DNA of 59,811 bases, the filler included. It is 4 parts of 4 records of this genome, joined end to end, with 100 filler letters (N's around TTAATTAATTAA, not from the genome) between each part and the next. Parts side by side here need not be neighbours in the genome. Positions count along the whole stretch, not along the records: positions 1 to 13,346 come from SRR20825006_3003; 3 more parts are not named here. One strand, written 5' to 3'. Within the stretch, counting starts at the first letter, position 1, and each line of letters starts with the position of its first letter. Shown piece by piece: positions 1 through 46,036 of the stretch. Both the position numbers and the translations under genes were made by a program. Below the pieces are notes generated by a model. It made no database searches. It was not told where the DNA came from and was given only the letters and a program-made list of their open reading frames with translations.

Positions 1-1
1 G

Positions 2-562
2 CAGAAACTCGACAAGCTGGGCATGCGCGGATCGGAGACGGGCGAACTTGTCTTTGAGGACTGCGAAGTGCCAGAAGAGAACGTCATGGGCCCGCTGAAT
101 GGCGGCGTTGGCGTTCTGATGAGTGGGCTGGATTATGAGCGCGCCGTCCTGTCAGCGGGGCCGACCGGCATCATGCAGGCCTGTATGGATGTCGTGATCC
201 CTTACATTCATGACCGGAAGCAATTCGGCCAGTCGATCGGCGAGTTCCAGCTGATCCAGGGCAAGGTCGCGGACATGTATGTCCAGATGAATGCGGCCAA
301 GGCCTATGTCTATGCCGTCGCCAAATCCTGCGACCGGGGCGAGACGACCCGCAAGGACGCCGCCGGCGCCATTCTGTATGCGGCCGAAACCGCGACCAAG
401 CTCGCGCTAGACGCGATCCAGATCCTTGGCGGCAATGGCTATATCAATGAATACCCGACCGGTCGCCTGCTGCGCGATGCCAAGCTCTACGAAATCGGGG
501 CAGGGACGTCGGAAATCCGCCGCTGGCTAATCGGTCGGGAACTCTTCGGCGAAACGGCTTAG
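2..562 (+). CDS. ivd: Isovaleryl-CoA dehydrogenase, 3' part (truncated at window start)
   Basis: Acyl-CoA dehydrogenase C-terminal motifs ([45 protein letters not shown]); lies in a cluster with mccB, liuC and mccA. Confidence 0.93.
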
Positions 563-572
563 CGGCTAGCAG

Positions 573-2369
573 CTAAGCAGGACAGCACTTCTCCTTGATT
601 GTGGCCCCTTCGAAGGCCTTCATCGTGGCGACATAGCCGGACTCGACGGTTTCGTCATAGGCTTTCCAGTCGCGCAGCTGGACATCGGCAAGTTGTGGCA
701 GGACCAGAACATCTGCCATGTCATGTCCGAATTTGGTGTCTGCACGGATCGTTGCGGTCCGCATGAGCAGGCCGGCAATAGGGGGCGGGCTGGAAAACCC
801 ATTATTGAAAACCCAGCGGAAGAAGCTCGGCGGTTCAGAAAATTCCTCCAGATCCATGTTTTCCGGCTGGCGCGTGACGTCAGAGCCCACGACAAAGCCG
901 CGATGCATATCCCGCATGATATCGGCCGGAAAATTGTTCAGCACTGCGCCATCAACCAGCAAATCCTTGCCATCCACGACCGGTGGCAAGATGCCCGGCA
1001 ACGAGATGGTCGCCCGCAGCGCATTGCGCAGCAGGCCTTCGCGATGGATACGCGTGGCGCCGCTGGTGAGGTTGGTCGAGGTACAGAAAAAGGGAATGTC
1101 GAGATCACCGATCTCCGCGTCGCCGAAATGCTCTTTCAGCCGGGCTGCGACGCGCGCGCCCTTCACCATGCCGACGACGGGCAAATGATAGTCCCCGAGC
1201 GGATTGCTATCGACAAATGCCTTGCGGATGCGTTGCTCGATTTCGGCATCGCTCCACCCCATTGCGACACAGGCCGCGATGACCGAGCCCATCGAGGCGC
1301 CGCCCACAAAATCGATCGGCAGGCCAAGTTCCCGCATCGCCTTGACGACGCCGATATGAGAATAGGCGCGCGCGCCCCCGCCTGACAGGATCAGCCCGAC
1401 GGAGACACCAGCCATGATGCGCGCGAGCCGGTCGCAATCCTGGCCTTCTACCCGGCTCCAGTGAAAGACGCGGGTAGCCCCGGACGCGGCGATCCATTCG
1501 GCCGGCTTGGCTCCTTGGCGCTCATCGCTGTGATGCAGCAACAGGACGTCCACGAGTTTCAGCGTGCGGGCAGGGGACTGGTCATCCGGCATCAATGGAT
1601 TGGAGGGGCGCGCATCAGCGCGGCCCACGACCCAGATCCGGTCGGCCTGGCGCATGGACAGGCGATACCAGGAATTGTCGCCAATGGCCGAGATCAGGAT
1701 CACGACATCATGTGCGCGCTCCAGCTCATCAAAATAGGCAGCCGGGCGTTCATCGCCCATCTGCTCGTCAACAATCACTGCTTTCCGCCCAAGGCGTTCC
1801 AATGCCTGTTTCAGCGACCGGGCCCGCAGCTTCAGGTCGATCGTCGGTGACGTGGCGACGAGCGTGAACACTTTCGGCGCAGCGCTGGCAACGCGATCAC
1901 CGGATTTCCCCAATCGGCGCAAAATCACCCGGATCATGGATTCGAGCAGTTCCGGCTCGGCTTTCACCATCCGGTCCCAGCCCTTGCGCGAGACGCCGAT
2001 CAGTTCCGTGTCGCGCAGCGCGTAAACCGAACTCGTATGGGGTGCATCGTTCGGCACGCCATCGCCGGTCAGGTCGACCCCGCCGAGGAAGAGTGACATC
2101 TCGCCGGCCGGCTCGCCGGAGCGGATATGGCCGACAAATTCGGACTTTCCATGCACGCCTTCCCGGAAGATGCCCAACGTTCCGGACAGGACGAAATAGA
2201 GCGTGTCAGCGGGTTCCCCGGCAAGATAGAGCGGCTTGCCGGCGGCGACCGAAAACCAGATGGCTTCCTTGCCTGCCGCCTTCATGGCGCGGGCCGGAAC
2301 ATCCTTCAGGAATTCAATGGCCCGCAAGCGGGGAGTTATATCAATGCCCATGTTGAAGAACATGCCCAT
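573..2369 (-). CDS. Cyclic-nucleotide-binding domain plus patatin-like phospholipase (NTE/RssA type)
   Basis: N-terminal CNB-like fold (GEPADTLYFVLSG...GEMSL); patatin motifs GGGARA, GASMG and DGA. Confidence 0.85.
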   Translation of the reverse strand: MGMFFNMGIDITPRLRAIEFLKDVPARAMKAAGKEAIWFSVAAGKPLYLAGEPADTLYFVLSGTLGIFREGVHGKSEFVGHIRSGEPAGEMSLFLGGVDLTGDGVPNDAPHTSSVYALRDTELIGVSRKGWDRMVKAEPELLESMIRVILRRLGKSGDRVASAAPKVFTLVATSPTIDLKLRARSLKQALERLGRKAVIVDEQMGDERPAAYFDELERAHDVVILISAIGDNSWYRLSMRQADRIWVVGRADARPSNPLMPDDQSPARTLKLVDVLLLHHSDERQGAKPAEWIAASGATRVFHWSRVEGQDCDRLARIMAGVSVGLILSGGGARAYSHIGVVKAMRELGLPIDFVGGASMGSVIAACVAMGWSDAEIEQRIRKAFVDSNPLGDYHLPVVGMVKGARVAARLKEHFGDAEIGDLDIPFFCTSTNLTSGATRIHREGLLRNALRATISLPGILPPVVDGKDLLVDGAVLNNFPADIMRDMHRGFVVGSDVTRQPENMDLEEFSEPPSFFRWVFNNGFSSPPPIAGLLMRTATIRADTKFGHDMADVLVLPQLADVQLRDWKAYDETVESGYVATMKAFEGATIKEKCCPA

Positions 2370-2486
2370 TTCGATTCCCTTTTCAAAGCCTTTCGCTCAT
2401 CCCCTGTGTTTCAAATTCGCATGACGCCCGCGTGACAGGTGGGCCGGGCGCCGCTAAGCAGGCACAAAATTCCAGTGGGAGGCGTT

Positions 2487-4094
2487 ATGCCGGTTCTGAA
2501 ATCCAGTCTTGATGTGTCCGGTAGCAAATTTGCCGCCAACAAAGCCGCCATGGAGACGCTTCTTGCCGAATTGCAAGAAAAAACCGCTAATGCCGCCATC
2601 GGAGGCCCGGAAGCGTCTCGCAAACGCCATGTAGAGCGCGGAAAATTGCTGCCGCGTGAACGAGTCGAACGCCTGCTGGACCCGGGCTCTGCCTTTCTCG
2701 AAATCGGTGCGCTGGCCGCCAATGGCATGTATGATAACGAAGCCCCCGGCGCAGGCCTGATCACGGGGGTCGGCCGGGTTGAGGGGCGCGAATGCCTGAT
2801 CGTCTGCAATGATGCGACAGTGAAGGGCGGCGCCTATTTCCCGATGACGGTGAAGAAGCATCTGCGCGCGCAGGAAGTGGCCCTCGAAAATCACCTGCCA
2901 TGTATCTATCTGGTCGATAGCGGCGGCGCGAACCTGCCGCATCAGTCAGAAGTCTTCCCGGACCGGGAACACTTTGGCCGCATCTTCTATAATCAGGCCC
3001 AGATGAGCGCGAAGGGCATTCCCCAGATCGCCGCCGTCATGGGCAGCTGTACTGCGGGTGGTGCCTACGTACCTGCGATGTCGGACGAGACCATCATTGT
3101 GCGCAAACAGGGCACGATCTTCCTCGGCGGTCCACCTTTGGTGAAGGCCGCCACGGGGGAAGTGATCTCAGCCGAAGACCTTGGCGGCGCAGATGTGCAT
3201 GCGCGCCAGTCCGGCGTGGCCGACCACTATGCGGCCCATGATTCTCACGCGCTCGCCATTGTCCGCTCCATTGTCCGCACGCTGGCCACGCCAAAGCCCC
3301 AGCCCTTCGATCTGACAGAGACTGCAGAGCCACTTTACGACCCTGCGGAGATGCATGGTCTGGTGCCTCAGGATGTCCGCGAGCCCTATGACGCCCGCGA
3401 AGTCATCGCGCGTCTCGTGGACGGATCGGAATTCCATGAGTTCAAGAAGCTCTATGGCGAGACGCTCGTCTGCGGGTTTGCGCGCCTCTATGGCATGCCG
3501 GTCGCGATCCTCGCCAATAATGGTATCCTGTTCTCTGAAAGCGCGCAGAAGGCCGCGCATTTCATCGAGTTGGCCGACCAGCGCCGCATCCCGCTGGTTT
3601 TCCTGCAGAATATTACCGGCTTCATGGTCGGGTCGAAATACGAGGCCGGCGGCATCGCCAAGGATGGCGCCAAGATGGTGACCGCCGTGGCCACCGCCAG
3701 CGTGCCGAAATTCACCGTGGTAACCGGCGGCAGCTTCGGCGCCGGCAATTATGGCATGTGCGGCCGGGCCTACAGCCCCCGCTTCCTGTTCATGTGGCCA
3801 AACTCCCGCATCTCCGTCATGGGCGGCGAACAGGCCGCCAGCGTGCTCGCCACAGTCAAGCGCGACGGCATTGAGCGCAAGGGCGGGGAATGGTCTGCCG
3901 AGGACGAGGACAGCTTCAAGCAGCCGATCCGCGATCTCTACGAAGCTGAAGGTTCGCCCTATTTCTCCACAGCGCGCCTATGGGATGACGGTATCATCGA
4001 CCCGGCCGATACCCGCCGCGTGCTGGGCCTTGCCCTTTCCGCCAGCCTGAATGCTCCGTTCCCGGATCGGGGCTTCGGCGTCTTTCGGATGTAG
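2487..4094 (+). CDS. mccB: 3-methylcrotonyl-CoA carboxylase beta (carboxyltransferase) subunit
   Basis: [46 protein letters not shown] end; RBS GGGAGG before the ATG at 2487. Confidence 0.95.
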
Positions 4095-4166
4095 GGGTTC
4101 TACGTATAAAATCTGTTGCCGGCCAATGGTAGAAGCTCCCTGTCACATGGCAGGAGGCTGACCCCC

Positions 4167-4754
4167 ATGACCCGCTCTATCTGTATCATCGATGGCCACC
4201 CCGATCCCGATCCGGACCATCTGGTCCACGCGCTCTGCGATGCTTATGCCGAGGGCGCCGAGGCGACCGATCACACAGTGTCTCGCATCCGCGTGGCAGA
4301 TTTCGACATGCCATTCCTCAACTCTGAGAAAGAGTTCGCAATGCCCCCGCCAGAGCCGGTGCTGAGTGAACGCCAGAAGATCGCCAACGCAGACCACCTC
4401 GTCATCGCTTTCCCGCTCTGGATGGGCGGTATGCCAGCCAAACTAAAGGCCTTCTTCGAACAGGCGGCCCGGGCAGAATTCTTCCTGAAAACAGGTGAGT
4501 CCGATCATGAATGGCCTGAGCGCATGATGAAGGGAAAGTCGGCCCGCATTATCGTGACGATGGGTATGCCCGACCTGGTCTATAGATTCGGCATGGATGC
4601 GGGCGCATTGAAAGCGTTGGAGCGCGGCGTGCTTGGCCTGTCTGGTTTCAAACCGATGCACCACACGATCATCGGCGGCGTTGGCGCTCTGACGCCATCA
4701 AAAGTCGAATCCTGGTTCGAGTTCATGAAGGAGATCGGCGGGCAGGCCGTCTGA
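4167..4754 (+). CDS. Flavodoxin-fold NAD(P)H-dependent oxidoreductase (MdaB/KefF-like)
   Basis: IIDGHPD, FPLWMGGMPAKLKAFFE, GKSARIIVTMG; RBS AGGAGG. Confidence 0.85.
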   Translation: MTRSICIIDGHPDPDPDHLVHALCDAYAEGAEATDHTVSRIRVADFDMPFLNSEKEFAMPPPEPVLSERQKIANADHLVIAFPLWMGGMPAKLKAFFEQAARAEFFLKTGESDHEWPERMMKGKSARIIVTMGMPDLVYRFGMDAGALKALERGVLGLSGFKPMHHTIIGGVGALTPSKVESWFEFMKEIGGQAV

Positions 4755-4872
4755 TCCGGGTTCATTACATCTTCGTCGTGAACGTCTTTTCACGCATCAT
4801 TACCACTTGTTTCGAGTATGTTCAGTCCTGTCGCGGTCCCCTGCGACGTATAGAGTAAGAAGGAGTTCGAAC

Positions 4873-5181
4873 ATGGTCAGACGTAGCAGCTTTCTGGTAA
4901 CGGCGGCGATGATGACGGCCCTGATGGGCCATGCGGGCGAGATGCCCGACTTCTCGTTGCTGGATCTGGATGATGATGGCCTGATCAGCGAGGACGAATA
5001 TGTGAGCTACTCCGACAGCGCGGGCACAGCCAGCGAGTCGGAGGCGAAAGCGAAGTTCACGAAATTCGACCTCAATTCGAATGGAACCGTGTCCGAGGAA
5101 GAACTGGCAGATGCCCTTGCTGCCTGGCGGGGACGGTCCGATCAAGGCGCCGTGACGGCGGCTGGCCTGCCGGTTCGGTAG
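4873..5181 (+). CDS. Small, probably secreted EF-hand calcium-binding protein
   Basis: Signal-like N-terminus; two EF-hand loops DLDDDGLISEDE and DLNSNGTVSEEE; RBS AGGAG. Confidence 0.8.
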   Translation: MVRRSSFLVTAAMMTALMGHAGEMPDFSLLDLDDDGLISEDEYVSYSDSAGTASESEAKAKFTKFDLNSNGTVSEEELADALAAWRGRSDQGAVTAAGLPVR

Positions 5182-5203
5182 GCTGCCCACCCAGTCGGTG
5201 CTG

Positions 5204-5233
5204 AAGGGGTCCGCCGGTCCAGCGGGCCCCTTT
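5204..5233 (+). terminator. Probable intrinsic terminator
   Basis: AAGGGGTCCGC-loop-GCGGGCCCCTT hairpin followed by a short T-rich tail, after the EF-hand gene. Confidence 0.55.
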
Positions 5234-5264
5234 CCATTTGGAACGAATACGATAAACAGCGCCG

Positions 5265-6311
5265 ATGGCGACAGCGCACCGACTGGCAGCAAACAGGTTT
5301 GATCTCATCCGGCTGGCGCTCGCTTCGGCCGTGTTTGCCTATCATGCAATCGTTCTGTCCGCGCTCGCGCCGATGAGCGGGTTGGAGCGCGCCTGGGGCC
5401 AAATTGCCGAGATCGCCATCCAAGGCTTCTTCATTGTATCCGGCGCATTGGTGGCCGGCTCGCTCATGCGGTCGCAAAACCTTGCTGACTATGCTGGCAA
5501 GCGGGTCCGTCGACTTTACCCGGCTTATGCTGTCGTCATTCTGATCCCGGCGCTCATCAGCCTGCTGATGGGCGGCAGTATTGGTGGAGTCGCAGAATAT
5601 GTGGGTGCCAATCTCGTCTTCCTGAACTTCCTGTCGCCGGATTTGCCGGGTCTGTTCGAAGGCAACCGCTTCACAGAGGTCAATGGTGCGTTGTGGACGT
5701 TGAAGATCGAGGTTCTATTCTATCTCATCCTGCCGATCATCGGCGGACTGCTGCGGACGATGCGCCGCGCGCAGTGGAGCGTCCTGGTGGGCCTGTATGT
5801 GTTGGGGGAGGGGTGGCGTCATCTGGTGCCTGTTTTTCTGGAGGGGGAATCCGCGCTTATCGCGGCGCGCCAGCTGCCGGGTCAGTTGGCCTTTTTCGCC
5901 AGTGGCATTGCCTTGTGGCAGGTATGGGATCGGGCCCAGGCAAAGCCGCTCTGGTTCGGCGTGGTGGGGCTCGCATTGACCTTGCTTTCCTTCGTCCATC
6001 CCTGGCTGGAGCCGCTCCGCGCGGCTGGACTGGCGGGCCTGATTGCCTGCCTGGCTTTCCTGCCAGGTCCTGCGCTGAACGCGGCGCGCTTCGGCGATAT
6101 CAGCTACGGCGTTTACATCACTCATTTTCCGATCCTGCAGGGCCTTGTCATGGTCGGCGCTTTTGAAGCATTCGGCCATGCGGTCGGCTTTGCCCTGTCG
6201 GCGCTTCTCGTCATCGTGGCCAGCTATGCGCTGTGGCATCTTGTCGAGCGGCGCGCCTTGCGCCCATCCAGCCACTACCGCAAAGTAGCCTCCAACCCTG
6301 AACAGGACTGA
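5265..6311 (+). CDS. Acyltransferase family 3 (OafA-like) membrane protein
   Basis: FDLIRLALA, GFFIVSG, RRLYP, WTLKIEVLFY, GDISYGVYITHFP; many TM segments. Confidence 0.85.
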   Translation: MATAHRLAANRFDLIRLALASAVFAYHAIVLSALAPMSGLERAWGQIAEIAIQGFFIVSGALVAGSLMRSQNLADYAGKRVRRLYPAYAVVILIPALISLLMGGSIGGVAEYVGANLVFLNFLSPDLPGLFEGNRFTEVNGALWTLKIEVLFYLILPIIGGLLRTMRRAQWSVLVGLYVLGEGWRHLVPVFLEGESALIAARQLPGQLAFFASGIALWQVWDRAQAKPLWFGVVGLALTLLSFVHPWLEPLRAAGLAGLIACLAFLPGPALNAARFGDISYGVYITHFPILQGLVMVGAFEAFGHAVGFALSALLVIVASYALWHLVERRALRPSSHYRKVASNPEQD

Positions 6312-6316
6312 TCCCC

Positions 6317-7117
6317 ATGCGCGATTCCGACTATGATCTCATCACGCTCGAAGCGACGCAGGAAGGCTTGGCGGTTGTCACGCTGAACCGGCCGGATGTG
6401 CACAATGCGTTCAATGCCGAGCTGATCGCCGAACTGACCGATGCGTTCCACACCATTGCCGACCAGCGCACCATTCGCATGATGATCCTGCGCGGCGCGG
6501 GCAAGAGTTTTTCGGCGGGCGCAGACCTCAACTGGATGAAGCTGGCGGCGATGCATACGCGCGAAGACAATGAGCGCGACGCGATGAACCTCGCCGAAAT
6601 GCTGCGCACGCTCTACGGCATGCCCCAGATGACGCTTGCCTTGGTGCAGGGCGCCGCCATGGGTGGCGGGGCCGGCCTCGTGGCCGCCTGTGACGTCGCT
6701 GTGGCGATGAAGGGCACGAAGTTCCGCTTCTCTGAAGTGCGCCTCGGCCTGACCCCGGCGACGATCAGCCCCTATGTGATCGAAGCCATCGGCGCGCGCT
6801 GGGCGAAGGCCTTGTTCACCACTGCCGAAACGTTTGATGCCGAATATGCTGAGAAGCTGGGCCTCGTTCAGTATGTCGTGGAAAACCAGGCCGAGATGAC
6901 GGCAATGGAAGAACACCTCGCAGATCTTGTCTTCGCCGCTGCGCCCGGCGCTGTGGCCGAGAGCAAGGCACTGGTGCGCGATGTCTCCGGCGTATTCATC
7001 GACAAGGATCTCAGCCACGAGACATCAAAGCGCATCGCAGCGCGTCGGGTCTCGGATGAGGGCAAGGAAGGCATTGAAGCCTTCCTCGACAAGCGCCCGC
7101 CTAGTTGGGGTCGGTAA
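6317..7117 (+). CDS. liuC: Methylglutaconyl-CoA hydratase (crotonase family)
   Basis: LNRPDVHNAF, FSAGADLNWM, GGGAGL, SEVRLGLTPATISPYV; leucine cluster context. Confidence 0.85.
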   Translation: MRDSDYDLITLEATQEGLAVVTLNRPDVHNAFNAELIAELTDAFHTIADQRTIRMMILRGAGKSFSAGADLNWMKLAAMHTREDNERDAMNLAEMLRTLYGMPQMTLALVQGAAMGGGAGLVAACDVAVAMKGTKFRFSEVRLGLTPATISPYVIEAIGARWAKALFTTAETFDAEYAEKLGLVQYVVENQAEMTAMEEHLADLVFAAAPGAVAESKALVRDVSGVFIDKDLSHETSKRIAARRVSDEGKEGIEAFLDKRPPSWGR

Positions 7118-7457
7118 CCAGTACGCTGTCTTTGGAGTCCACCGGCAAGCCGAAGTCGGCCAGCAGATTAAGTGTCGCGCTGATCGGGTTTATCCCCGTG
7201 AGCGCTTCGATCTGGTGCTGGAAGAAATATGCCACGATGCCAAACAGGATGATGTAGATCACGAACTGCATCAGCGACTTCAGCAGGAAGGCACCCGCGC
7301 TGCCCGCGACGAAGCCGATGGCGCCGAGGATCAGCGCGCCGGCCACGGGGCTGAGATTGCTGACATCTGCAGCCTGCGTGTAACCAATATAGCCGCCAAC
7401 GCCGGCGCCGATGACTCCCGCGACACTGCTGATCCGGATTCCTGAAGCATAGGCCAT
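7101..7457 (-). CDS. Small glycine-rich membrane protein, unknown function
   Basis: 118-aa ORF with about three hydrophobic segments; GGGAG upstream of the ATG at 7457. Confidence 0.7.
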   Translation of the reverse strand: MAYASGIRISSVAGVIGAGVGGYIGYTQAADVSNLSPVAGALILGAIGFVAGSAGAFLLKSLMQFVIYIILFGIVAYFFQHQIEALTGINPISATLNLLADFGLPVDSKDSVLVTDPN

Positions 7458-7598
7458 AAGACACTCCCGTGGTTTCTTGGCATTAACCCTTACGACAGCT
7501 GGCAGGGGTGTCAAAGGTGGAATTTGGACTGGCAAAGGCCCTTGCCTCGCCTGGTGCGTGCCCCGATTGCGCCGTGTTTCCTGCAGATAGAGGAGAGC

Positions 7599-8519
7599 AT
7601 GGAGATACCGGTCCCCGCCCAGACCCGCGCGCAACAACGCCTGCATGCCGCGCGCGCCGCGCTGCATGCGCGCTGCGTGAATGGCCCGGTCAGCCAGACC
7701 GTGTTCGAATTTGTGGCCTTCGGCATCAAGCAGGGCTGGGCGTGCCTGTTTGGCGGCCTGATGCTGGGGCTCTTGCTGCTGACCTTTGTCTGGTATCCGG
7801 AAGGCGCGCCGCTCTCGCGCTATGATTTCCTCGTGCTGGGTGCGGTTGCCATTCAGGTCATGATGCTATGGACGGGCCTGGAAACATGGGAAGAGGCGAA
7901 AATCATCCTCGTCTTCCATATTGTCGGCACGGTCATGGAACTGTTCAAAACCTATCATGGCAGCTGGATCTATCCCGAGGAGAGCTTCCTGCGCATTGGC
8001 GGTGTGCCGTTGTTTACGGGCTTCATGTACGCGGCAGTGGGCTCCTATCTGGCGCGAGTCTGGCGCATCTTCGACTTCCGGTTTGACCGTTTCCCGCCAC
8101 TCTGGGTTCAAGCCAGTCTGACAACCGCGATTTACGTGAATTTCTTCGCGCATCACTGGCTGCCGGATGTCCGGATCGCCCTGTTCGTGGGCACGGCGAT
8201 GGTTTATGGGCCATGCTTGGTCTGGTTCCGCGCTGACGAAGCCCACAGGCCGATGCCGCTCGTCATCGGGTTCCTGCTCGTAGCAGTTTTCATCTGGTTT
8301 GCTGAGAATCTTGGAACATTCGCCCGCGCCTGGGCCTATCCCGGGCAAGAGCATGGCTGGCAGATGGTCTCTTTATCGAAACTCGGTTCGTGGTATCTGC
8401 TGATGATAATCAGTTTTGTTCTGGTGGCTTTGGTCCACCGGGCGCCGGGAGGGCCACGCATTGAAGATCCAGAAGCTGCTCGTCGCAAACAGGGGCGAGA
8501 TCGCCTGTCGCATCTTTGA
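7599..8519 (+). CDS. DUF817-family membrane protein
   Basis: KQGWACLFGG, RYDFL, FHIVGTVMELFKT, GVPLFTGFMYAAVGSY, KLGSWYLLMIISF; RBS GAGGAG. Confidence 0.8.
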   Translation: MEIPVPAQTRAQQRLHAARAALHARCVNGPVSQTVFEFVAFGIKQGWACLFGGLMLGLLLLTFVWYPEGAPLSRYDFLVLGAVAIQVMMLWTGLETWEEAKIILVFHIVGTVMELFKTYHGSWIYPEESFLRIGGVPLFTGFMYAAVGSYLARVWRIFDFRFDRFPPLWVQASLTTAIYVNFFAHHWLPDVRIALFVGTAMVYGPCLVWFRADEAHRPMPLVIGFLLVAVFIWFAENLGTFARAWAYPGQEHGWQMVSLSKLGSWYLLMIISFVLVALVHRAPGGPRIEDPEAARRKQGRDRLSHL

Positions 8520-10365
8520 GACCTGCCATGGGCTCGGCATTGCGACAGTCGCCGTCTATTCCGATGCCGATGCGCGCGCGAAACATGTCCGCGAGGCCGA
8601 CGAAGCGATCCATATCGGCCCGTCGCCTGCGCCGGAAAGCTATCTCAAGGTCGAGGCCATCTTGGCCGCTGCCAAGGCGACCGACGCCGATGCCATCCAT
8701 CCGGGCTATGGCTTCCTGTCCGAGAATGCCGATTTCGCCGAAGCCGTCGAGAAAGCGGGCCTCATCTGGGTTGGCCCTTCGGCCAAGGCGATCCGGTCCA
8801 TGGGCCCGAAGGACGAAGCCAAGCGCATTGCCGAAGAGGCCGGCGTGCCTGTGCTGCCCGGCTATCGCGGCGAAGGGCAGGAGCTGGAAACGCTTGCCAG
8901 GGCGGCGAAAGATGTCGGCTTTCCGCTGCTGATCAAGGCGGTTGCCGGGGGCGGCGGGCGCGGCATTCGCCTCGTCTCCAAGGCGGGCGAGCTGAAGGCC
9001 GAGCTGGAAAGCGCGGTGCGTGAGGCCGAAAGTTCCTTTGGCGATGGCCGGGTCATGCTGGAAAAACTGGTCGAGCAGCCACGCCATATTGAAGTGCAGG
9101 TCTTTGGCGATGCGCATGGCAATGTCGTCCATCTCTATGAACGCGATTGCTCGCTGCAGCGTCGCCGCCAGAAAGTCATTGAGGAAGCGCCCGCGCCCGG
9201 CATGCCGGATGATGTGCGAGCGGCCATGACGGACGCAGCGGTGAAGCTGGCGCAGGCTGTTGGATATCAGGGCGCGGGCACGGTGGAATTCATCGTCGAC
9301 GGGTCAAAGCCGCTGGGCGTCGACACGTTTTGGTTCCTCGAAATGAATACCCGGCTTCAGGTGGAGCATCCGGTGACCGAGATGATTACCGGGCAGGACC
9401 TTGTCGCCTGGCAATTGCTGGTCGCTTCGGGCGAGGAAATTCCGCTGGCGCAGGACGAGATCCCGCTGATGGGCCATGCCATCGAGGCGCGCATCTGCGC
9501 CGAAGACCCGGCCGATGGCTTCCGCCCCGGCGCGGGGCTGATCCTGGAGTTCGGCCTGTTGCAGCCGATTGATGGGGAAACGATCCGCTGGGATGCCGGT
9601 TTCGAGACGGGTGATCGCGTACCATCCAACTATGATTCCATGATCGCGAAACTGATCGTGCACGGAGAAGACCGCGACGCGGCGGTTGACCTGCTGACCG
9701 AGACGCTGTCGCACACCCAACTCTCGGGCGTGCCGGCCAATACCGGCTTCCTGCGCCGCTGCGCCCAGTCGGACGCGTTCCGCGATGGCACGCATCATGT
9801 GAACTGGATTGCGGAGCAGGGGGATGCGCTGACCCAGCCTCCCGCCGCGCATCAGCATGCATCTGTTCTCGCCGTCTGCGACATCGAGCTGGATGACAGC
9901 GCTGCCGTCACACCATGGGGAATCCGGGATGGCTTCCGGGCGAATGGCGCGCCTGTGCGAAAGGCGGCCGTCGCTGTGGGCGCCGATGTAGACTGGTTTG
10001 ACCCGTCCGAGCATGACGTCGATCCGGACGCGCCGCTGCCTTTCGTGACAGATATCTCTCCGCGCCGCTATGCGGTGACGACCGGCGGGGACAATGTCCT
10101 TGTGGAAGTGCCGGACTATGACGCCGATGTCGAAGCGTTGCTGGGCGGCGACTCAGTCAGCGCGCCGATGCCGGGCAAACTGCTCGCCGTGCATGTGAAG
10201 CCGGGCGATACGGTCACCAAGGGTGATCCGGTTGCGGTGATGGAAGCCATGAAGATGGAGCACACCCTGCCGGCGCCGCGCGATGGCGTGGTGGAGTCCG
10301 TGGAGGCTGCCGCCGGGGATCAGGTCGCCGAGGGCGATGTGCTGGTTCATCTGGAGGCGGAGTAA
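8461..10365 (+). CDS. mccA: 3-methylcrotonyl-CoA carboxylase alpha subunit (biotin carboxylase plus biotinyl domain)
   Basis: ANRGEIA, HPGYGFLSEN, ERDCSLQRRRQK, EMNTRLQVEHPVTE, EAMKM biotin site; TTG start at 8461 with GGGAGG RBS. Confidence 0.93.
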   Translation: MKIQKLLVANRGEIACRIFETCHGLGIATVAVYSDADARAKHVREADEAIHIGPSPAPESYLKVEAILAAAKATDADAIHPGYGFLSENADFAEAVEKAGLIWVGPSAKAIRSMGPKDEAKRIAEEAGVPVLPGYRGEGQELETLARAAKDVGFPLLIKAVAGGGGRGIRLVSKAGELKAELESAVREAESSFGDGRVMLEKLVEQPRHIEVQVFGDAHGNVVHLYERDCSLQRRRQKVIEEAPAPGMPDDVRAAMTDAAVKLAQAVGYQGAGTVEFIVDGSKPLGVDTFWFLEMNTRLQVEHPVTEMITGQDLVAWQLLVASGEEIPLAQDEIPLMGHAIEARICAEDPADGFRPGAGLILEFGLLQPIDGETIRWDAGFETGDRVPSNYDSMIAKLIVHGEDRDAAVDLLTETLSHTQLSGVPANTGFLRRCAQSDAFRDGTHHVNWIAEQGDALTQPPAAHQHASVLAVCDIELDDSAAVTPWGIRDGFRANGAPVRKAAVAVGADVDWFDPSEHDVDPDAPLPFVTDISPRRYAVTTGGDNVLVEVPDYDADVEALLGGDSVSAPMPGKLLAVHVKPGDTVTKGDPVAVMEAMKMEHTLPAPRDGVVESVEAAAGDQVAEGDVLVHLEAE

Positions 10366-10490
10366 CCCCCACCCTTCACATGCAGGTGTGGCCCTTCAGG
10401 CTCCGGACAGGTGAGGCCGGAGCAATCTCGCGCGCCGAGAGTGGGTGTGGAGACGCGCGAAAACAAGGAAACATGTAAAGGGTAGGGGCC
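10364..10490 (-). ncRNA. Candidate structured RNA element (19-bp closing stem plus two internal hairpins)
   Basis: 10472-10490 pairs with 10364-10382 over 19 bp, with all four non-Watson-Crick positions being G-U on the minus strand; internal stems 10426-10434/10454-10462 and 10400-10406/10417-10423. Confidence 0.55.
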
Positions 10491-10499
10491 GCTGCGTGA

Positions 10500-10829
10500 C
10501 TAGGCCGCGACAGCGTAACCGGGATGGATCCGGGCAGGCATCTGCGCTTCGGGGCGATAGCGACGGTGCACGATCGGCGGCGCGCTGATCTCGCCAAGCG
10601 GGTTGGCCGCGTAGGCCGTCGGCTCGGTTCTCAGGATCAGTTCGCCATATTCATTCTTGGCGACAGAGACGGGCGCGGCAGAGCCGTCGCGCTCTGCGGC
10701 CCAGAATTCAACGCCTGTCGAGGCCAGCGCAATCGCCTGTTCCAGCTCCATGCGGAAGCCGTCGCCATAGACGACATCCTTGGACTCAATTGGATCGTAC
10801 TCACATCCCTTGATCACCAAACCCGACAT
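10500..10829 (-). CDS. Small hypothetical protein, DUF3892-like, probably SOS-regulated
   Basis: 109-aa ORF, RBS GAGGGG; pattern AI..A..G..FW....V.V......LRT......N.L recalls DUF3892 (from memory, unverified). Confidence 0.7.
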   Translation of the reverse strand: MSGLVIKGCEYDPIESKDVVYGDGFRMELEQAIALASTGVEFWAAERDGSAAPVSVAKNEYGELILRTEPTAYAANPLGEISAPPIVHRRYRPEAQMPARIHPGYAVAA

Positions 10830-10863
10830 GCTGAAACCCCTCGTGAAACTGTGTGCTGAACCT

Positions 10864-10941
10864 GTTCTTCGCTTGATCTGCGATAAGAGAACATAACCAG
10901 AATATTCACCTTTTGGAAAGGAAAAAGTTCTGACTTTGTTC
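10864..10941 (-). promoter_or_regulatory. Three alphaproteobacterial LexA (SOS) boxes around a sigma-70-like promoter
   Basis: GTTC-N7-GTTC at 10927-10941; GAAC-N7-GAAT at 10889-10903; GTTC-N7-GATC at 10864-10878; minus-strand TTCCAA(10918-10913)-N17-TATGTT(10895-10890). Confidence 0.75.
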
Positions 10942-10988
10942 CAAAAAGTTTGAAATCCGAAAAGATTCAGGAGTCTACGAGGAGGGTG

Positions 10989-12329
10989 CTAGCCCTGCAG
11001 CCGCCTGAGCGCTCGGTCCCGCCCGATCAGGGGCAGCAGTGCGCCCATGTCGGGGCCGTGTTCTTGTCCGGTCAGCGCCTTGCGGAGCGTCATGAACAGG
11101 CCGCGGCCTTTGCGGCCGGTTTCGGCCTTCACGGCATTCGCCCACTGACTCCAGCTCTCGCCCGTCAGGTCGCCCTCGGGCAGCAGGGTTGCGGCGGTCG
11201 CCACGAAGTCCTTGTCTTCAGCATCCACCAGAGGCGTGATCTCGCCAAACACGGTCTCGACCCATGCGGCCACGTCCGGCAACAGCGAGCAATTCTCGCG
11301 CACAACAGTCCAGAACGCCTCGTCGGCGGCGCGGGGGTCCACATCGGCGAGCCGGTCCTTCACCGCCTCAAAGGGCAGGCCGTGCAGGATGGCCGCGTTC
11401 AGCGACAAGAGTTCGGCCTCGTCGAAGCGCGCCGGGGCGCGGCCGATCTTGCCGAAATCGAATTCCGCGACCAGCTGGTCCAGCGTCTCGCGCGCCTCGA
11501 CATTATCCGACGTACCGATCTTGGCGAGCAGGCTGGAGACGGCCATCGGCTCATAGCCCTGCGCGCGCAATTCGCCCATCGACAGCGAGCCGAGGCGTTT
11601 CGACAGGCCCTGACCGTCCGCGCCGATCAGCAGCGGCGTGTGCGCCATGTCCGGCGCCGTGCCGCCCAGCGCCTTGAAGATCTCGATCTGCGCGCCGGAA
11701 TTGGTGACATGGTCTTCCCCGCGCACGACATGGGTGATCTTCGCCTCGATATCATCGACGACCGAGGGGAGGGTGTAGAGATAGGAGCCGTCCTCGCGGA
11801 TCAGGATCGGGTCGGACAGGCTGGACGTGTCGATGCTCTGGTCTCCGCGCACAAGGTCGGTCCACTCGACGCGCCCGCCGGAGAGTTTGAAGCGCCAGTG
11901 AGGCGTGCGGCCTTCGGCTTCGAGTTTTGCCTTGTCTTCATCGCTCAGCTCCAGCGCCGCGCGGTCATAGACGGGCGGGCGGCCGCGCGACAGCGCGATC
12001 TTGCGCTTGCGGTCGAGTTCGTCGGCTGTCTCGTAGCAGGGATAGAGCAGGCCCATTTCGCGCAGCTTGTCGGCCGCCGCGTCATATTCGGCAAAGCGCT
12101 TGGACTGGCTGAAACTGTTGTCCCAGACGAGGCCGAGCCAGGTCAGGTCGGTGCGGATTCCGTCTTCATATTCCTGTGTCGAGCGCTCGGTATCGGTGTC
12201 ATCGATGCGCAGGATGAACTTGCCCTGCTGGCCCTTGGCGAACAGCCAGTTGATCAGCGCCGTGCGCACGTTACCTACGTGCAGGCGGCCGGTTGGCGAG
12301 GGAGCGAAGCGAACAATCGGTGCAGTCAT
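10989..12329 (-). CDS. gltX: Glutamate-tRNA ligase
   Basis: RFAPSPTGRLHVGN (HIGH), LRIDDTD, RGEDHVTN, GLSKR (KMSKS-type). Confidence 0.95.
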   Translation of the reverse strand: MTAPIVRFAPSPTGRLHVGNVRTALINWLFAKGQQGKFILRIDDTDTERSTQEYEDGIRTDLTWLGLVWDNSFSQSKRFAEYDAAADKLREMGLLYPCYETADELDRKRKIALSRGRPPVYDRAALELSDEDKAKLEAEGRTPHWRFKLSGGRVEWTDLVRGDQSIDTSSLSDPILIREDGSYLYTLPSVVDDIEAKITHVVRGEDHVTNSGAQIEIFKALGGTAPDMAHTPLLIGADGQGLSKRLGSLSMGELRAQGYEPMAVSSLLAKIGTSDNVEARETLDQLVAEFDFGKIGRAPARFDEAELLSLNAAILHGLPFEAVKDRLADVDPRAADEAFWTVVRENCSLLPDVAAWVETVFGEITPLVDAEDKDFVATAATLLPEGDLTGESWSQWANAVKAETGRKGRGLFMTLRKALTGQEHGPDMGALLPLIGRDRALRRLQG

Positions 12330-12458
12330 GGAAAAAACCTGTTTTGAAGCGTGCTTTCGACATCAAATCACGCAAAAAGCCAAGGGCCGATGCCATATTC
12401 TTGCTATTGTTCGTGCTAATGTGCGACGGGCATGTGAGTCGCCGTCGAGGAGAGGTAG

Positions 12459-13283
12459 ATGAGACTGGGCTGTATTCTGATCGCCGCGGGCCTGTTGGCG
12501 GCCTGCGGGCAGGAGCGTGCGGAGGCTCCGGCAGAGACGCCGGCGCCCGCAACGACCGAGGTGACCTCAGACCTCGACAGCGCGCTGGAGGCAGAGCCTG
12601 CCGCGCCGCCCGTCGATGATATCAATTATCAGGCCCTGTCGGGATATGATGAGAGCTGGTATGTCAGCGCGGGCTGGCCCGGCGAATATCCGGCCGGTTT
12701 TGCGGTGCTGGATGCTGGTACGACCGTTCCTGCCTGGACGGTGCCGAATGGCGCCAATGAAGCCGACACAAGCTGCGCTCTGCCGCAATACGCCAATTAC
12801 CAGCTCTGGAATTATGACCGCGCCGACGCCGATGACCTGCGCTTCTTCGTGGCGACCAAGACGTTCCCGGTCACGCTCAACCAGGATGCCAGCATCGAAT
12901 ACATTTCCGATGGCGGCATCCACACGCTCGACCTGAAGGCTGGCGACCAGCTGACATACCTCCGCTATCTGGGGGAGGGGTTCACCGTCGTGTCTTATGA
13001 CGGCGCCGAATATGACATCAACGAGGCCGAGCTGCGCGATATCAGCGATATCGGCTCCATGCCGACGGTTGAGGACCAGTGGGTGCGCGTAACCTGCGCG
13101 GACGGCACGCAGCCCTGGCTGCTCTATGCATCCGTCATCGACCATCCCGGCATCGTGCCATCGCCCATGCTGGCCTATGGCGAAGCGAGCGATATTGCCC
13201 CGGAAGATGCCGAGCAGATCCGCATGGATGCCGAGGCCAACCGCCTCGCCTATGAAGGGGTTGAGCCCGGCTCGCTCGAATAG
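12459..13283 (+). CDS. Acidic lipoprotein, unknown function
   Basis: Lipobox LLAAC, Ala/Pro/Glu-rich linker, RBS GGAGAGG. Confidence 0.8.
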   Translation: MRLGCILIAAGLLAACGQERAEAPAETPAPATTEVTSDLDSALEAEPAAPPVDDINYQALSGYDESWYVSAGWPGEYPAGFAVLDAGTTVPAWTVPNGANEADTSCALPQYANYQLWNYDRADADDLRFFVATKTFPVTLNQDASIEYISDGGIHTLDLKAGDQLTYLRYLGEGFTVVSYDGAEYDINEAELRDISDIGSMPTVEDQWVRVTCADGTQPWLLYASVIDHPGIVPSPMLAYGEASDIAPEDAEQIRMDAEANRLAYEGVEPGSLE

Positions 13284-13298
13284 GGGCCAAACGCCCGA

Positions 13299-13346
13299 TC
13301 AATCGTCCCGGAAGCGGTTGGTGATCGGATAGCGCCGGTCGCGGCC
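13299..13346 (-). CDS. nadE: NAD+ synthase, C-terminal 15 residues (truncated by contig end)
   Basis: Minus strand reads GRDRRYPITNRFRDD*, the typical C-terminus of glutamine-dependent NadE. Confidence 0.75.
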   Translation of the reverse strand, partial: GRDRRYPITNRFRDD

Positions 13347-13446
13347 NNNNNNNNNNNNNNNNNNNNNNNNNNNNNNNNNNNNNNNNNNNNTTAATTAATT
13401 AANNNNNNNNNNNNNNNNNNNNNNNNNNNNNNNNNNNNNNNNNNNN
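13347..13446. other. Artificial contig spacer
   Basis: N44-TTAATTAATTAA-N44 (stops in all six frames); genes truncated on both sides. Confidence 0.98.
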
Positions 13447-13689
13447 GATCTTGCTGGTGCCGCCGCCCATCAGCACGATCGGCCGGTGACCGGCCCGCTG
13501 CAGGTGACGGAGCATCATGATCTGGATAAGGCTGCCGACATGCAGGCTGTCGGCCGTGCAGTCAAAGCCGATATAGGCGGTCACGACCTTGTTGTTCAGC
13601 ATCTCGTCGAGTGCGTCATTATCGGTGCATTGATGGACGAACCCGCGCTCGCTCATGGTCTGCATGAAGCCCGATTTGAACTGGCTCAT
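13447..13689 (-). CDS. tyrS: Tyrosine-tRNA ligase, 5' part
   Basis: [22 protein letters not shown]; divergent from anmK. Confidence 0.95.
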
Positions 13690-32420: not shown

Positions 32421-32520
32421 NNNNNNNNNNNNNNNNNNNNNNNNNNNNNNNNNNNNNNNNNNNNTTAATTAATTAANNNNNNNNNNNNNNNNNNNNNNNN
32501 NNNNNNNNNNNNNNNNNNNN
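32421..32520. other. Artificial contig spacer
   Basis: N44-TTAATTAATTAA-N44. Confidence 0.98.
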
Positions 32521-45936: not shown

Positions 45937-46036
45937 NNNNNNNNNNNNNNNNNNNNNNNNNNNNNNNNNNNNNNNNNNNNTTAATTAATTAANNNNNNNN
46001 NNNNNNNNNNNNNNNNNNNNNNNNNNNNNNNNNNNN
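45937..46036. other. Artificial contig spacer
   Basis: N44-TTAATTAATTAA-N44. Confidence 0.98.

Follow-up and report, generated by a model that had tools for sequence, protein, structure and literature searches.

In a 59,811-nucleotide (nt) stretch of DNA (filler included, and hereafter called the window), whose positions 1 to 13,346 come from record SRR20825006_3003, a small gene preceded by putative LexA-type sites and followed by a structured RNA element lies on the minus strand between gltX and mccA. The gene is an open reading frame (ORF) of 109 amino acids (aa), and its product is a divergent member of the DUF3892 family. Upstream of it, and co-directional with it, lies a gltX-like gene for a class I Glu/Gln tRNA synthetase, and a gene for a protein with biotin carboxylase and biotinyl domains is convergent with it. 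The latter clusters with genes encoding a carboxyltransferase, an enoyl-CoA hydratase and an acyl-CoA dehydrogenase, and the name mccA rests on this context. Both neighbours were found where an original prediction, made from the sequence of the window, had placed them.

Orthologous loci (L001 to L018) were gathered by scanning one genome per species with peptide patterns, and statements on presence refer to these 18. Their record titles give Hyphomonas, Hyphomonadaceae or, for some metagenome-assembled genomes, Rhodobacterales, Rhodobacteraceae or Alphaproteobacteria. Protein identity to the window ORF ranges from 99% (L004) down to 53% (L016). In the same cross-locus comparisons the ORF is under purifying constraint, with a ratio of non-synonymous to synonymous substitution rates (dN/dS) of 0.15-0.42 at dS values of up to ~1.0-1.1. 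With this constraint and a ribosome-binding site (RBS) in place, the 109-aa gene predicted on the minus strand at 10829-10500 is a real coding gene. Re-annotation of the orthologous loci gave gltX, mccA or unrelated small ORFs as neighbours, and the gene looks vertically inherited within the marine genus Hyphomonas, at a place between gltX and the mcc/liu cluster. Among the annotated genes of the 59.8-kb window there are no canonical SOS, phage or defence genes, and recA, lexA, uvrA and imuA do not occur within it.

LexA-type sites and the promoter block

The sequence GTTC-N7-GTTC is described as the LexA motif of Alphaproteobacteria (PMC8565304; PMC3323433) and of Caulobacter (PMC9578287, Table 1; bioRxiv 10.1101/2025.01.26.634973), and the table in PMC9578287 attributes the Caulobacter operator to da Rocha et al. 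2008. The original prediction had named the motif as alphaproteobacterial, and three of these sources (PMC8565304; PMC3323433; PMC9578287) agree with it. A single exact occurrence was found in the window, at 10927-10941 (O1, which reads GAAC-N7-GAAC on the strand of the ORF); this lone site is not significant because shuffled sequences give 1.62 such sites per window. Across the orthologous loci, O1 is perfect in 18 of 18 and stands 110-121 nt before the ATG, its GAAC tetrads being invariant and its spacer positions 4-7 variable. In nine of the 18 loci an additional perfect site, inverted with respect to O1, lies 5 nt upstream of it; L017 carries this site with one mismatch, and it is absent from the window. 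Altogether the 18 upstream stretches of 200 nt hold 28 perfect sites, compared with 2 in the remaining 103,981 nt of the loci, although the 28 are homologous and not independent of one another.

A second candidate operator (O2), opposite in orientation to O1, is kept with one mismatch in all 18 loci, its imperfect half reading ATTC in 17 of them and TTTC in L017. Sites with one mismatch allowed are not enriched in the window as a class (41 observed, 44 expected); four fall within 10853-10941, and only 2 of 300 first-order Markov simulations produced as many in a span of 100 nt. Two of these are overlapping near-sites in the presumed 5' untranslated region (UTR). The one at 10864-10878 is kept in four of the 18 loci (L001-L004) and the one at 10853-10867, which adds to those listed in the original prediction, in five (L001-L005); both are probably not operators, and the former is probably a chance match. 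Of the three LexA-type sites predicted upstream of the gene, then, the perfect one and the one at 10889-10903 recur throughout, and the one at 10864-10878 does not. Given the conserved sites, LexA control of the gene is considered likely.

The two conserved sites belong to a block of 61 nt that is almost invariant in the 19 aligned upstream regions (window and 18 loci), while the dS of the ORF reaches ~1.0-1.1. In the three loci whose upstream neighbour is not gltX (L002, L008 and L015), similarity starts at the boxes. Two putative promoter assignments fit the sequence of the block (Table 1). In one the putative -35 element overlaps O1 and O2 sits at the start site; only in the other does O2 lie over the -10 element, as had been predicted for the site at 10889-10903. 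Between the two boxes lies a perfect 8-nt palindrome, GAATATTC (10900-10907), which is invariant in the window and in 17 of the 18 loci and is changed to GAATTTTC in L017; another factor could bind there. Just past the promoter block, within the first ~30 nt and near the presumed 5' end of the mRNA, a GC-rich hairpin is predicted in eight of the 18 loci (L006, L008, L010, L011, L013, L014, L016 and L017), with a sequence that differs by locus. It was rejected as a common feature, being absent from the window clade.

Hyphomonas jannaschiana VP2 (L018) carries a second DUF3892 gene (2406-2810, 134 aa; region 2290-2810) between gltX and the orthologue. Its product scores 24.7 bits against Pfam DUF3892, above the cut-off of 22.3. 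About 100 nt before its ATG stand a perfect GTTC-N7-GTTC, 4 bases, a one-mismatch GAAC-N7-GTAC and a T-run, which is the operator layout of the orthologue's promoter; beyond this layout the two promoters align poorly. Besides this perfect site, only one other lies outside the upstream stretches of the orthologues. Because the spacers are not complementary (3 of 7 positions pair, as read by eye), the symmetry of the paralogue's sites is confined to the tetrads, as for a protein site and not a hairpin. The paralogue has neither the Ala-Ala tail of the orthologues nor the 3' element.

The DUF3892 protein and its C-terminus

Compared directly with Pfam DUF3892 (PF13031), the product of the window ORF gives 12.8 bits (E value 0.17, residues 19-70), which is below the gathering cut-off of 22.3. 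The family is a narrow one: a word-indexed search returned 13 relatives, and phmmer over 1.84 billion representatives gave 16 proteins at E <= 0.001, few of which are full-length close relatives; these relatives (E values of 6e-12 to 8e-4) align along the whole domain. DUF3892 is matched by eight of the 14 aligned members of the family, the best with an E value of 4.9e-8, and P0024 reaches 33.8 bits. Neighbours of the ORF in a language-model atlas are DUF3892 clusters (score 0.90). By transitive homology through these eight members and the paralogue of L018, the product is a divergent DUF3892 protein. The original prediction had named this resemblance and had proposed a comparison with Pfam: the resemblance proved correct, and the comparison succeeds for eight of the aligned members and falls short for the window ORF.

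An AlphaFold2 model of the product has a mean predicted local distance difference test (pLDDT) score of 80.7; its block means are 86-95 over residues 1-80 and fall below 50 over residues 88-109. The model places strands at residues 4-12, 17-22 and 25-28 and a helix at 29-37, followed by three further strands. This strand-strand-strand-helix start agrees with the published description of DUF3892 as a three-stranded meander with a helix, similar to double-stranded RNA-binding domains and ribosome hibernation factors and proposed to sense RNA or ribosomes (bioRxiv 10.1101/2025.01.14.632903). A sequence profile search of the PDB gave a best E value of 0.33, and the best Foldseek match was an ORF of a Pyrobaculum virus (E value 0.04-0.06, TM score ~0.3); these searches yielded no experimental DUF3892 structure on which to superpose the model. 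One of the phmmer relatives, P0021 (1463 aa, without a Pfam family), contains 12 stretches similar to ORF residues 48-87. The LRT...ANxLGEI motif falls in this half of the domain, which may occur as a repeat unit too.

DUF3892 operons have been described under CapH/CapP, a DNA-damage-activated repressor-protease pair (bioRxiv 10.1101/2022.04.27.489752), and the same preprint cites Burroughs and Aravind 2020 for the link of DUF3892 with defence. A tblastn search with the relative P0023 found three Sulfitobacter/Pseudosulfitobacter plasmids. On one of them, NZ_CP054605.1, genes for an ImmA/IrrE peptidase and a helix-turn-helix (HTH) protein are divergent from two DUF3892 genes, and one of the DUF3892 proteins is named in that preprint. 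The plasmid locus has no GTTC-N7-GTTC and no match to the model of the 3' element, and its DUF3892 proteins lack the Ala-Ala tail. Searched by tblastn, the ORF gave no match in the plasmid and phage collections, and P0017 gave none in the plasmids.

C-termini that resemble the ssrA tag act as degrons for ClpXP. Natural ssrA-like C-termini and ClpXP-labile SOS proteins, such as E. coli RecN with its LAA end, were reportedly described by Flynn et al. in 2003 and Neher et al. in 2006. In all 18 orthologous loci the protein ends with (Y/F)A(V/I)AA-stop, and the preceding residues vary; upstream of this end the tail holds a conserved basic stretch that is disordered in the AlphaFold2 model. The Caulobacter ssrA tag ends EFAVAA (PMC1233412), and the same six residues end the protein in L009, with DFAVAA in L012 and L018. 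An exposed C-terminus in which a non-polar residue is followed by Ala-Ala, like the end of the transfer-messenger RNA (tmRNA) tag, has the sequence features of an ssrA-like degron. The YAVAA tail of the window ORF is therefore read as a probable ClpXP degron, which would make the protein ClpXP-labile. Such a protein would resemble the labile SOS proteins in its small non-polar residue and Ala-Ala end and, on the reading preferred below, in its induction by damage, and would differ from them in reproducing the end of the alphaproteobacterial tmRNA tag with its final five to six residues. A remnant of a tmRNA gene was also considered and rejected, as ARAGORN finds only a tRNA-Leu in the window.

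The 3' RNA element

Immediately after the stop codon, the 136 nt from 10499 to 10364 on the minus strand fold at -68.3 kcal/mol, compared with -46.3 +/- 3.8 kcal/mol for shuffled sequences (z -5.78; 0 of 200 shuffles as good). The first 9 nt of the fold are unpaired, and the other 127 nt lie inside a closing stem (P1). In an alignment of 15 homologous 3' elements (A4), 91.9% of the cells of P1 are paired, compared with 45-60% when the partner is slid by 1-3 columns. Compensatory changes on both sides occur at nine of 19 pairs of P1, and none of 500 shuffles reached its covariation score. The sequence of P1 is wholly different between clades, for example between the window, L006, L009 and L015, and hairpin P3 covaries between both long-form clades. 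The 3' paired structure is real and covarying, in keeping with the 127-nt multi-stem structure predicted on the same strand about 10 nt past the stop.

Scored with a covariance model, the element is recovered from the window and 16 of the 18 loci, at 52-82 bits on the strand of the ORF and 15-23 bits on the opposite strand. The original prediction had proposed to ask whether boxes and structure are conserved together; the boxes are present in 18 of 18 loci and the structure in 16. With the terminal two pairs excluded, 27 cells are G-U on the ORF strand, as against 7 A-C cells, the kind that reads as G-U on the opposite strand. No further copies were found by the covariance model in 175,641 nt. 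The interior measures 133-136 nt in L006-L008 and the clade of the window, and 72-86 nt in L009-L015 and L018. The constant parts of the element are the closing stem, the leader and a C-rich motif (CCACACC or YCACCUCC). The leader UCACGCAGC forms, together with the first stem bases, the invariant sequence CGCAGCGGCCC, and the C-rich motif has an unpaired probability of 0.54-1.00 in 15 of 15 sequences, compared with 0.27-0.41 for whole elements. In the six loci with extra DNA before mccA (L001, L006-L008, L009 and L018), the element lies within ~20 nt of the ORF stop.

Of the features of an intrinsic terminator, the GC-rich stem-loop is present and the U-run is absent. An ordinary hairpin followed by Us takes the place of the element in L016. 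In L017 the ORF is followed instead (L017:3330-3520) by a long inverted repeat with arms of ~30 nt, rich in CCCCC/GGGGG and ~90 nt apart, which may be a repeat element. A search of 10000-11300 against Rfam at E values of up to 10 gave only two chance-level matches to eukaryotic families, elsewhere in that stretch; at the gathering score, the whole window gave tRNA-Leu only, with no match of the CcsR/cuckoo type. By blastn, the element has no match among the plasmids and matches only itself in the window. A dispersed repeat or miniature inverted-repeat transposable element was rejected, there being one copy per locus and none elsewhere in the sequence scanned. Pairing of the leader with the start region was rejected as well; judged by eye, the complementarity exists only in L009-type loci and not in the window or L006 clades.

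The invariant leader past the stop also resembles the last codons of the ORF itself (window 10486-10522, minus strand). In L006 the 8-mer GGTTACGC occurs at the Gly-Tyr-Ala codons and again directly after the stop. The resemblance could reflect an old tandem duplication or a shared recognition site.

Table 1. Positions in the window of the features of the DUF3892 locus and its neighbours.
Feature	Position	Strand	Remarks
ORF, 109 aa	10500-10829	minus	ATG start; RBS GAGGGG at 10837-10842
Divergent DUF3892 globular domain (residues 1-87) and disordered basic tail (residues 88-109)	within 10500-10829	minus	
YAVAA codons, ssrA-tag-like end	10503-10517	minus	Candidate ClpXP degron
O1, perfect GAAC-N7-GAAC (plus strand GTTC-N7-GTTC)	10927-10941	minus	112 nt before ATG; begins the conserved promoter block
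O2, candidate operator, ATTC-N7-GTTC, one mismatch	10889-10903	minus	Orientation opposite to O1; overlaps -10 or +1 depending on promoter assignment
Two overlapping one-mismatch near-sites in the 5' UTR	10864-10878 and 10853-10867	minus (10853-10878)	Kept in few loci
Near-invariant 61-nt promoter/operator block	10881-10941	minus	From the alignment of window and 18 loci
Putative promoter, first assignment	-35 CAGAAC 10927-10932; -10 GTGAAT 10904-10909	minus	Spacing 17 nt; -35 overlaps O1; O2 at start site
Putative promoter, second assignment	-35 TTCCAA 10913-10918; -10 TATGTT 10890-10895	minus	Spacing 17 nt; O2 over -10
Probable 5' UTR	10830-10888	minus	Contains RBS GAGGGG 10837-10842; sequence diverges between clades
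Single-stranded leader UCACGCAGC	10491-10499	minus	Invariant columns in A4; unpaired probability 0.76-0.99
127-nt 3' structure	10364-10490	minus	Final two bases overlap the complement of the mccA stop (10363-10365)
Closing stem P1	10472-10490 with 10364-10382	minus	19-20 pairs
Hairpin P2	10426-10462	minus	
Hairpin P3	10400-10423	minus	
Small hairpin P4	10384-10395	minus	
Exposed C-rich motif CCACACC in the P2 loop	10444-10450	minus	Other clades CCAC(A)CC / YCACCUCC
gltX-like class I Glu/Gln tRNA synthetase gene	10989-12329	minus	Upstream of the ORF
Biotin carboxylase and biotinyl-domain gene (mccA)	8416-10365	plus	

Putative control of the gene and rival readings

The reading preferred here, held with slightly better than even confidence, is that of a LexA-repressed gene for a probably ClpXP-labile DUF3892 protein, with a transcript that its 3' UTR hairpin terminates or stabilises. 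As long as DNA is undamaged, LexA would be bound to O1 and probably to O2 too, and in roughly half of the genus the perfect site 5 nt upstream of O1 may be occupied as well; the bound sites would jointly cover the core promoter. On DNA damage, RecA-stimulated cleavage of LexA would leave the promoter free, and a transcript of ~0.5 kb encoding the 109-aa protein would be made. The YAVAA end would hand the protein to ClpXP, so that the protein would be gone soon after repression returns. The 3' structure would most likely end and stabilise the transcript, and would keep SOS-driven transcription from running antisense into mccA. From the conserved features of the locus we infer LexA binding, damage induction, degradation by ClpXP, the role of the 3' structure in termination or stabilisation and the binding of RNA or ribosomes by the protein.

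Several points weigh against this reading, beginning with the class-level literature on which the use of GTTC-N7-GTTC by the Hyphomonas LexA rests. O2 is imperfect in every locus and its conservation is inseparable from that of the core promoter, the third box (10864-10878) is lineage-specific, and a sigma-70 consensus scan found no promoter in 10200-11100. On the side of the protein, the window ORF itself is under the Pfam threshold, Foldseek gave nothing at E <= 0.001 against PDB and BFVD, four proteins searched against PADLOC and NCBIfam matched no family, and PHROGs gave only matches at E >= 0.038. The tag with which the tail was compared is that of Caulobacter. As regards the 3' end, the ORF strand reads UUACUCC right after the stem and neither strand has a U-run there, a scan of 10200-11100 found no terminators, and L016 and L017 are without the element while keeping the gene and the boxes. 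The remaining points concern the identity of the upstream block and are taken up with the readings that they would favour.

One such reading is that the block is no LexA operator, its GAAC repeats being an extracytoplasmic function (ECF) or other alternative-sigma promoter with GGAAC as -35, the site of another regulator or, in some members of the genus, the hairpin that terminates the upstream gene; the stress to which the gene responds would then be a different one. GGAAC is the usual -35 element of ECF sigma promoters, and the motif of the EcfG type is GGAAC-N16/17-CGTT. In 13 of 19 sequences GGAAC makes up the second half of O1 (the window, L001, L002, L004 and L006 have AGAAC instead), and a conserved GTGAAT/CATAAA hexamer stands 17 nt downstream of it. 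The failure of the sigma-70 scan and the conservation of all 61 nt of the block, not of the tetrads alone, point the same way, and the invariant palindrome GAATATTC could serve another dimeric factor. However, the first GAAC, 11 nt upstream, is not required by an ECF promoter, yet all 19 sequences and the L018 paralogue keep it unchanged, and the G that precedes the second AAC is A in five sequences. Where the CGTT of an EcfG promoter is expected lies the most variable part of the block (GGTG, GATG, AGTG, CGTG, CGTA, TCAT), so that no CGTT -10 element of this type is conserved at the right distance from GGAAC. As for a terminator, the inverted boxes and T-run fold beyond shuffled sequences in L009 (-16.8 kcal/mol, z -3.29), L015 (z -2.67) and the L018 paralogue (z -2.72), and in L009-type loci this inverted pair with its T-run could be the terminator of the upstream gene. 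The window clade, in contrast, has a perfect O1 without the upstream arm and a fold no better than shuffles (z -0.50), and the spacers of the L018 paralogue are not complementary (3 of 7 positions). Weighing these points together, a block that is not a LexA operator is judged unlikely.

The main rival concerns the 3' structure, which might be a functional RNA that DNA damage brings forth along with the protein, in the way that the CcsR small RNAs (sRNAs) of Rhodobacter are cut from the ccaF1 3' UTR; it would be either a 3'-UTR-derived sRNA whose exposed C-rich stretch serves as seed, or a site at which the DUF3892 protein binds or exerts autoregulation. CcsR sRNAs have C-rich loops. The multi-stem architecture (not a single hairpin) with its covarying P3, the invariant leader CGCAGC, the CCAC(A)CC predicted unpaired in every aligned sequence, the preference for the ORF strand and the occurrence of a single-copy element with no U-tract are all consistent with such an RNA. 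DUF3892 has been proposed as a sensor of RNA or ribosomes (bioRxiv 10.1101/2025.01.14.632903), and a small protein and 3'-UTR sRNAs in one unit have a precedent (PMC8034643). Processing and a separate RNA species are, however, hypothetical, and the interior of the structure varies greatly by clade. L016 and L017 keep gene and boxes without it, the L018 paralogue is boxed and has no element, no Rfam family matches, and a C-rich strand is expected opposite the G-rich arm of a stem. A functional RNA is therefore possible but rather unlikely. The protein could also be an anti-phage or abortive-infection effector that LexA control fires on prophage induction or a DNA-damaging infection. In favour of this stand the DUF3892 operons among candidate defence systems under CapH/CapP (bioRxiv 10.1101/2022.04.27.489752), the fusions of DUF3892 to Min-Wnt effectors (bioRxiv 10.1101/2025.01.14.632903) and the CapH/CapP-type layout on the Pseudosulfitobacter plasmid NZ_CP054605.1, and tight repression with a degron would suit a costly effector. 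Against it, the gene appears vertically inherited in a stable housekeeping neighbourhood (gltX and the mcc cluster) that is no defence island or mobile element, it has no PADLOC match and no homologue in the phage and plasmid collections, and no effector domain is attached; a role in defence is held to be improbable. TisB/IstR and SymE/SymR are SOS-induced type I toxin-antitoxin pairs, and the small division inhibitors SulA and SidA belong to known SOS regulons. The original prediction named division inhibitors and toxins as typical of genes under several boxes; on such a reading the protein would be a division inhibitor or growth-arresting toxin, and with the 3' RNA as its antidote the unit would resemble a type I pair. 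Multiple boxes and a degron do suggest that the level of the protein must stay low, in line with these precedents, but SidA and type I toxins differ from this protein, a soluble, beta-rich domain that lacks a hydrophobic segment. The locus offers neither the small hydrophobic or toxic peptide nor the antisense or overlapping RNA of a type I system: the 3' RNA lies beyond the ORF on the strand of the ORF and is antisense to neither the ORF nor its leader, complementarity of the element to the RBS is not kept across clades (by eye), and the window annotation shows no antitoxin gene adjoining the ORF. A toxin or checkpoint role is accordingly considered very unlikely.

A more far-reaching combination of these ideas, which is rated as very doubtful, is that DNA damage switches on a two-part riboregulatory device that reprogrammes translation in the SOS response. 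It would consist of an RNA- or ribosome-binding DUF3892 protein that a mimic of the tmRNA tag makes short-lived and of a released 3' RNA, whose C-rich, anti-Shine-Dalgarno-like loop and invariant leader would act on target mRNAs or on the protein. If true, this would give DUF3892 its first function and would explain its capture by the unrelated damage sensors LexA and CapH/CapP.

To return to the LexA-repressed gene preferred here, its closest parallels are the LexA regulon genes of Alphaproteobacteria such as Caulobacter crescentus, with which it shares GTTC-N7-GTTC in the promoter, more than one site and, as with many genes of these regulons, a small size and an uncharacterised product. It differs from reported LexA regulon genes in its protein family, as DUF3892 is not tied to LexA in the literature searched; no study of a LexA or SOS regulon in Hyphomonas was found in that literature, as judged by title. 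With the CapH/CapP operons, as described for Sulfitobacter sp. CW3, it has the Pfam family and a damage-responsive regulator in common (bioRxiv 10.1101/2022.04.27.489752). Those operons consist of a divergent HTH repressor and ImmA/IrrE-type metallopeptidase with two DUF3892 genes on a plasmid, whereas the Hyphomonas locus is a single chromosomal gene with LexA-type boxes, flanked by gltX and mccA and with no such pair. The Min-Wnt-DUF3892 fusions (bioRxiv 10.1101/2025.01.14.632903) have the same domain with a similar modelled start, and no effector is fused to it here. The ccaF1-CcsR unit of Rhodobacter sphaeroides likewise has a stress-induced gene for a small DUF protein followed by a structured 3' UTR RNA, the small RNA-binding protein and the sRNAs sharing one transcript (PMC8034643). 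It is an analogy only, the protein family there being DUF1127 and the control, as far as that account goes, not LexA.

DUF3892 is a widespread small domain, a predicted RNA or ribosome binder that comparative work has grouped with conflict systems. LexA-controlled small genes are common and DUF3892 is already tied to a DNA-damage regulator, and LexA-type wiring of DUF3892 would therefore be a variant. Because LexA-type boxes and CapH/CapP are two independent routes to the same input, a role of DUF3892 tied to DNA damage is suggested. The Hyphomonas locus offers a simple and tractable handle on the domain, with one gene, a control region of 61 nt, a candidate degron and a covarying 3' RNA. If the preferred reading holds, it is also an example of three stacked controls (transcriptional, proteolytic and at the level of RNA) on a small SOS gene.

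A few further observations were made at the locus and elsewhere in the window. The 3' element and the mccA stop are only a few bases apart, and this short space resembles an insertion hot spot. In L001 (3464-4428) it is occupied by an insert of ~948 bp, which has a 17-nt direct repeat of the mccA end on its flanks and includes a 306-aa ORF without a Pfam family. In L006-L008 (~3470-3590) there are ~120 nt extra between element and mccA, with a repeat of the first 6-8 bases of the mccA end; ~165 nt extra occur at the same place in L018, and L009 also carries extra DNA (L009/L018 region ~3415-3590). Paired 44-nt runs of N with 12 bases between them, read as masked sequence, lie at 13347-13446, 32421-32520 and 45937-46036 of the window, and an N run cuts an ORF near 13399-13689. 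On the minus strand at 576-2369, a cyclic-nucleotide-binding domain and a patatin-like phospholipase are joined in one protein, whose gene adjoins the leucine-catabolism cluster.

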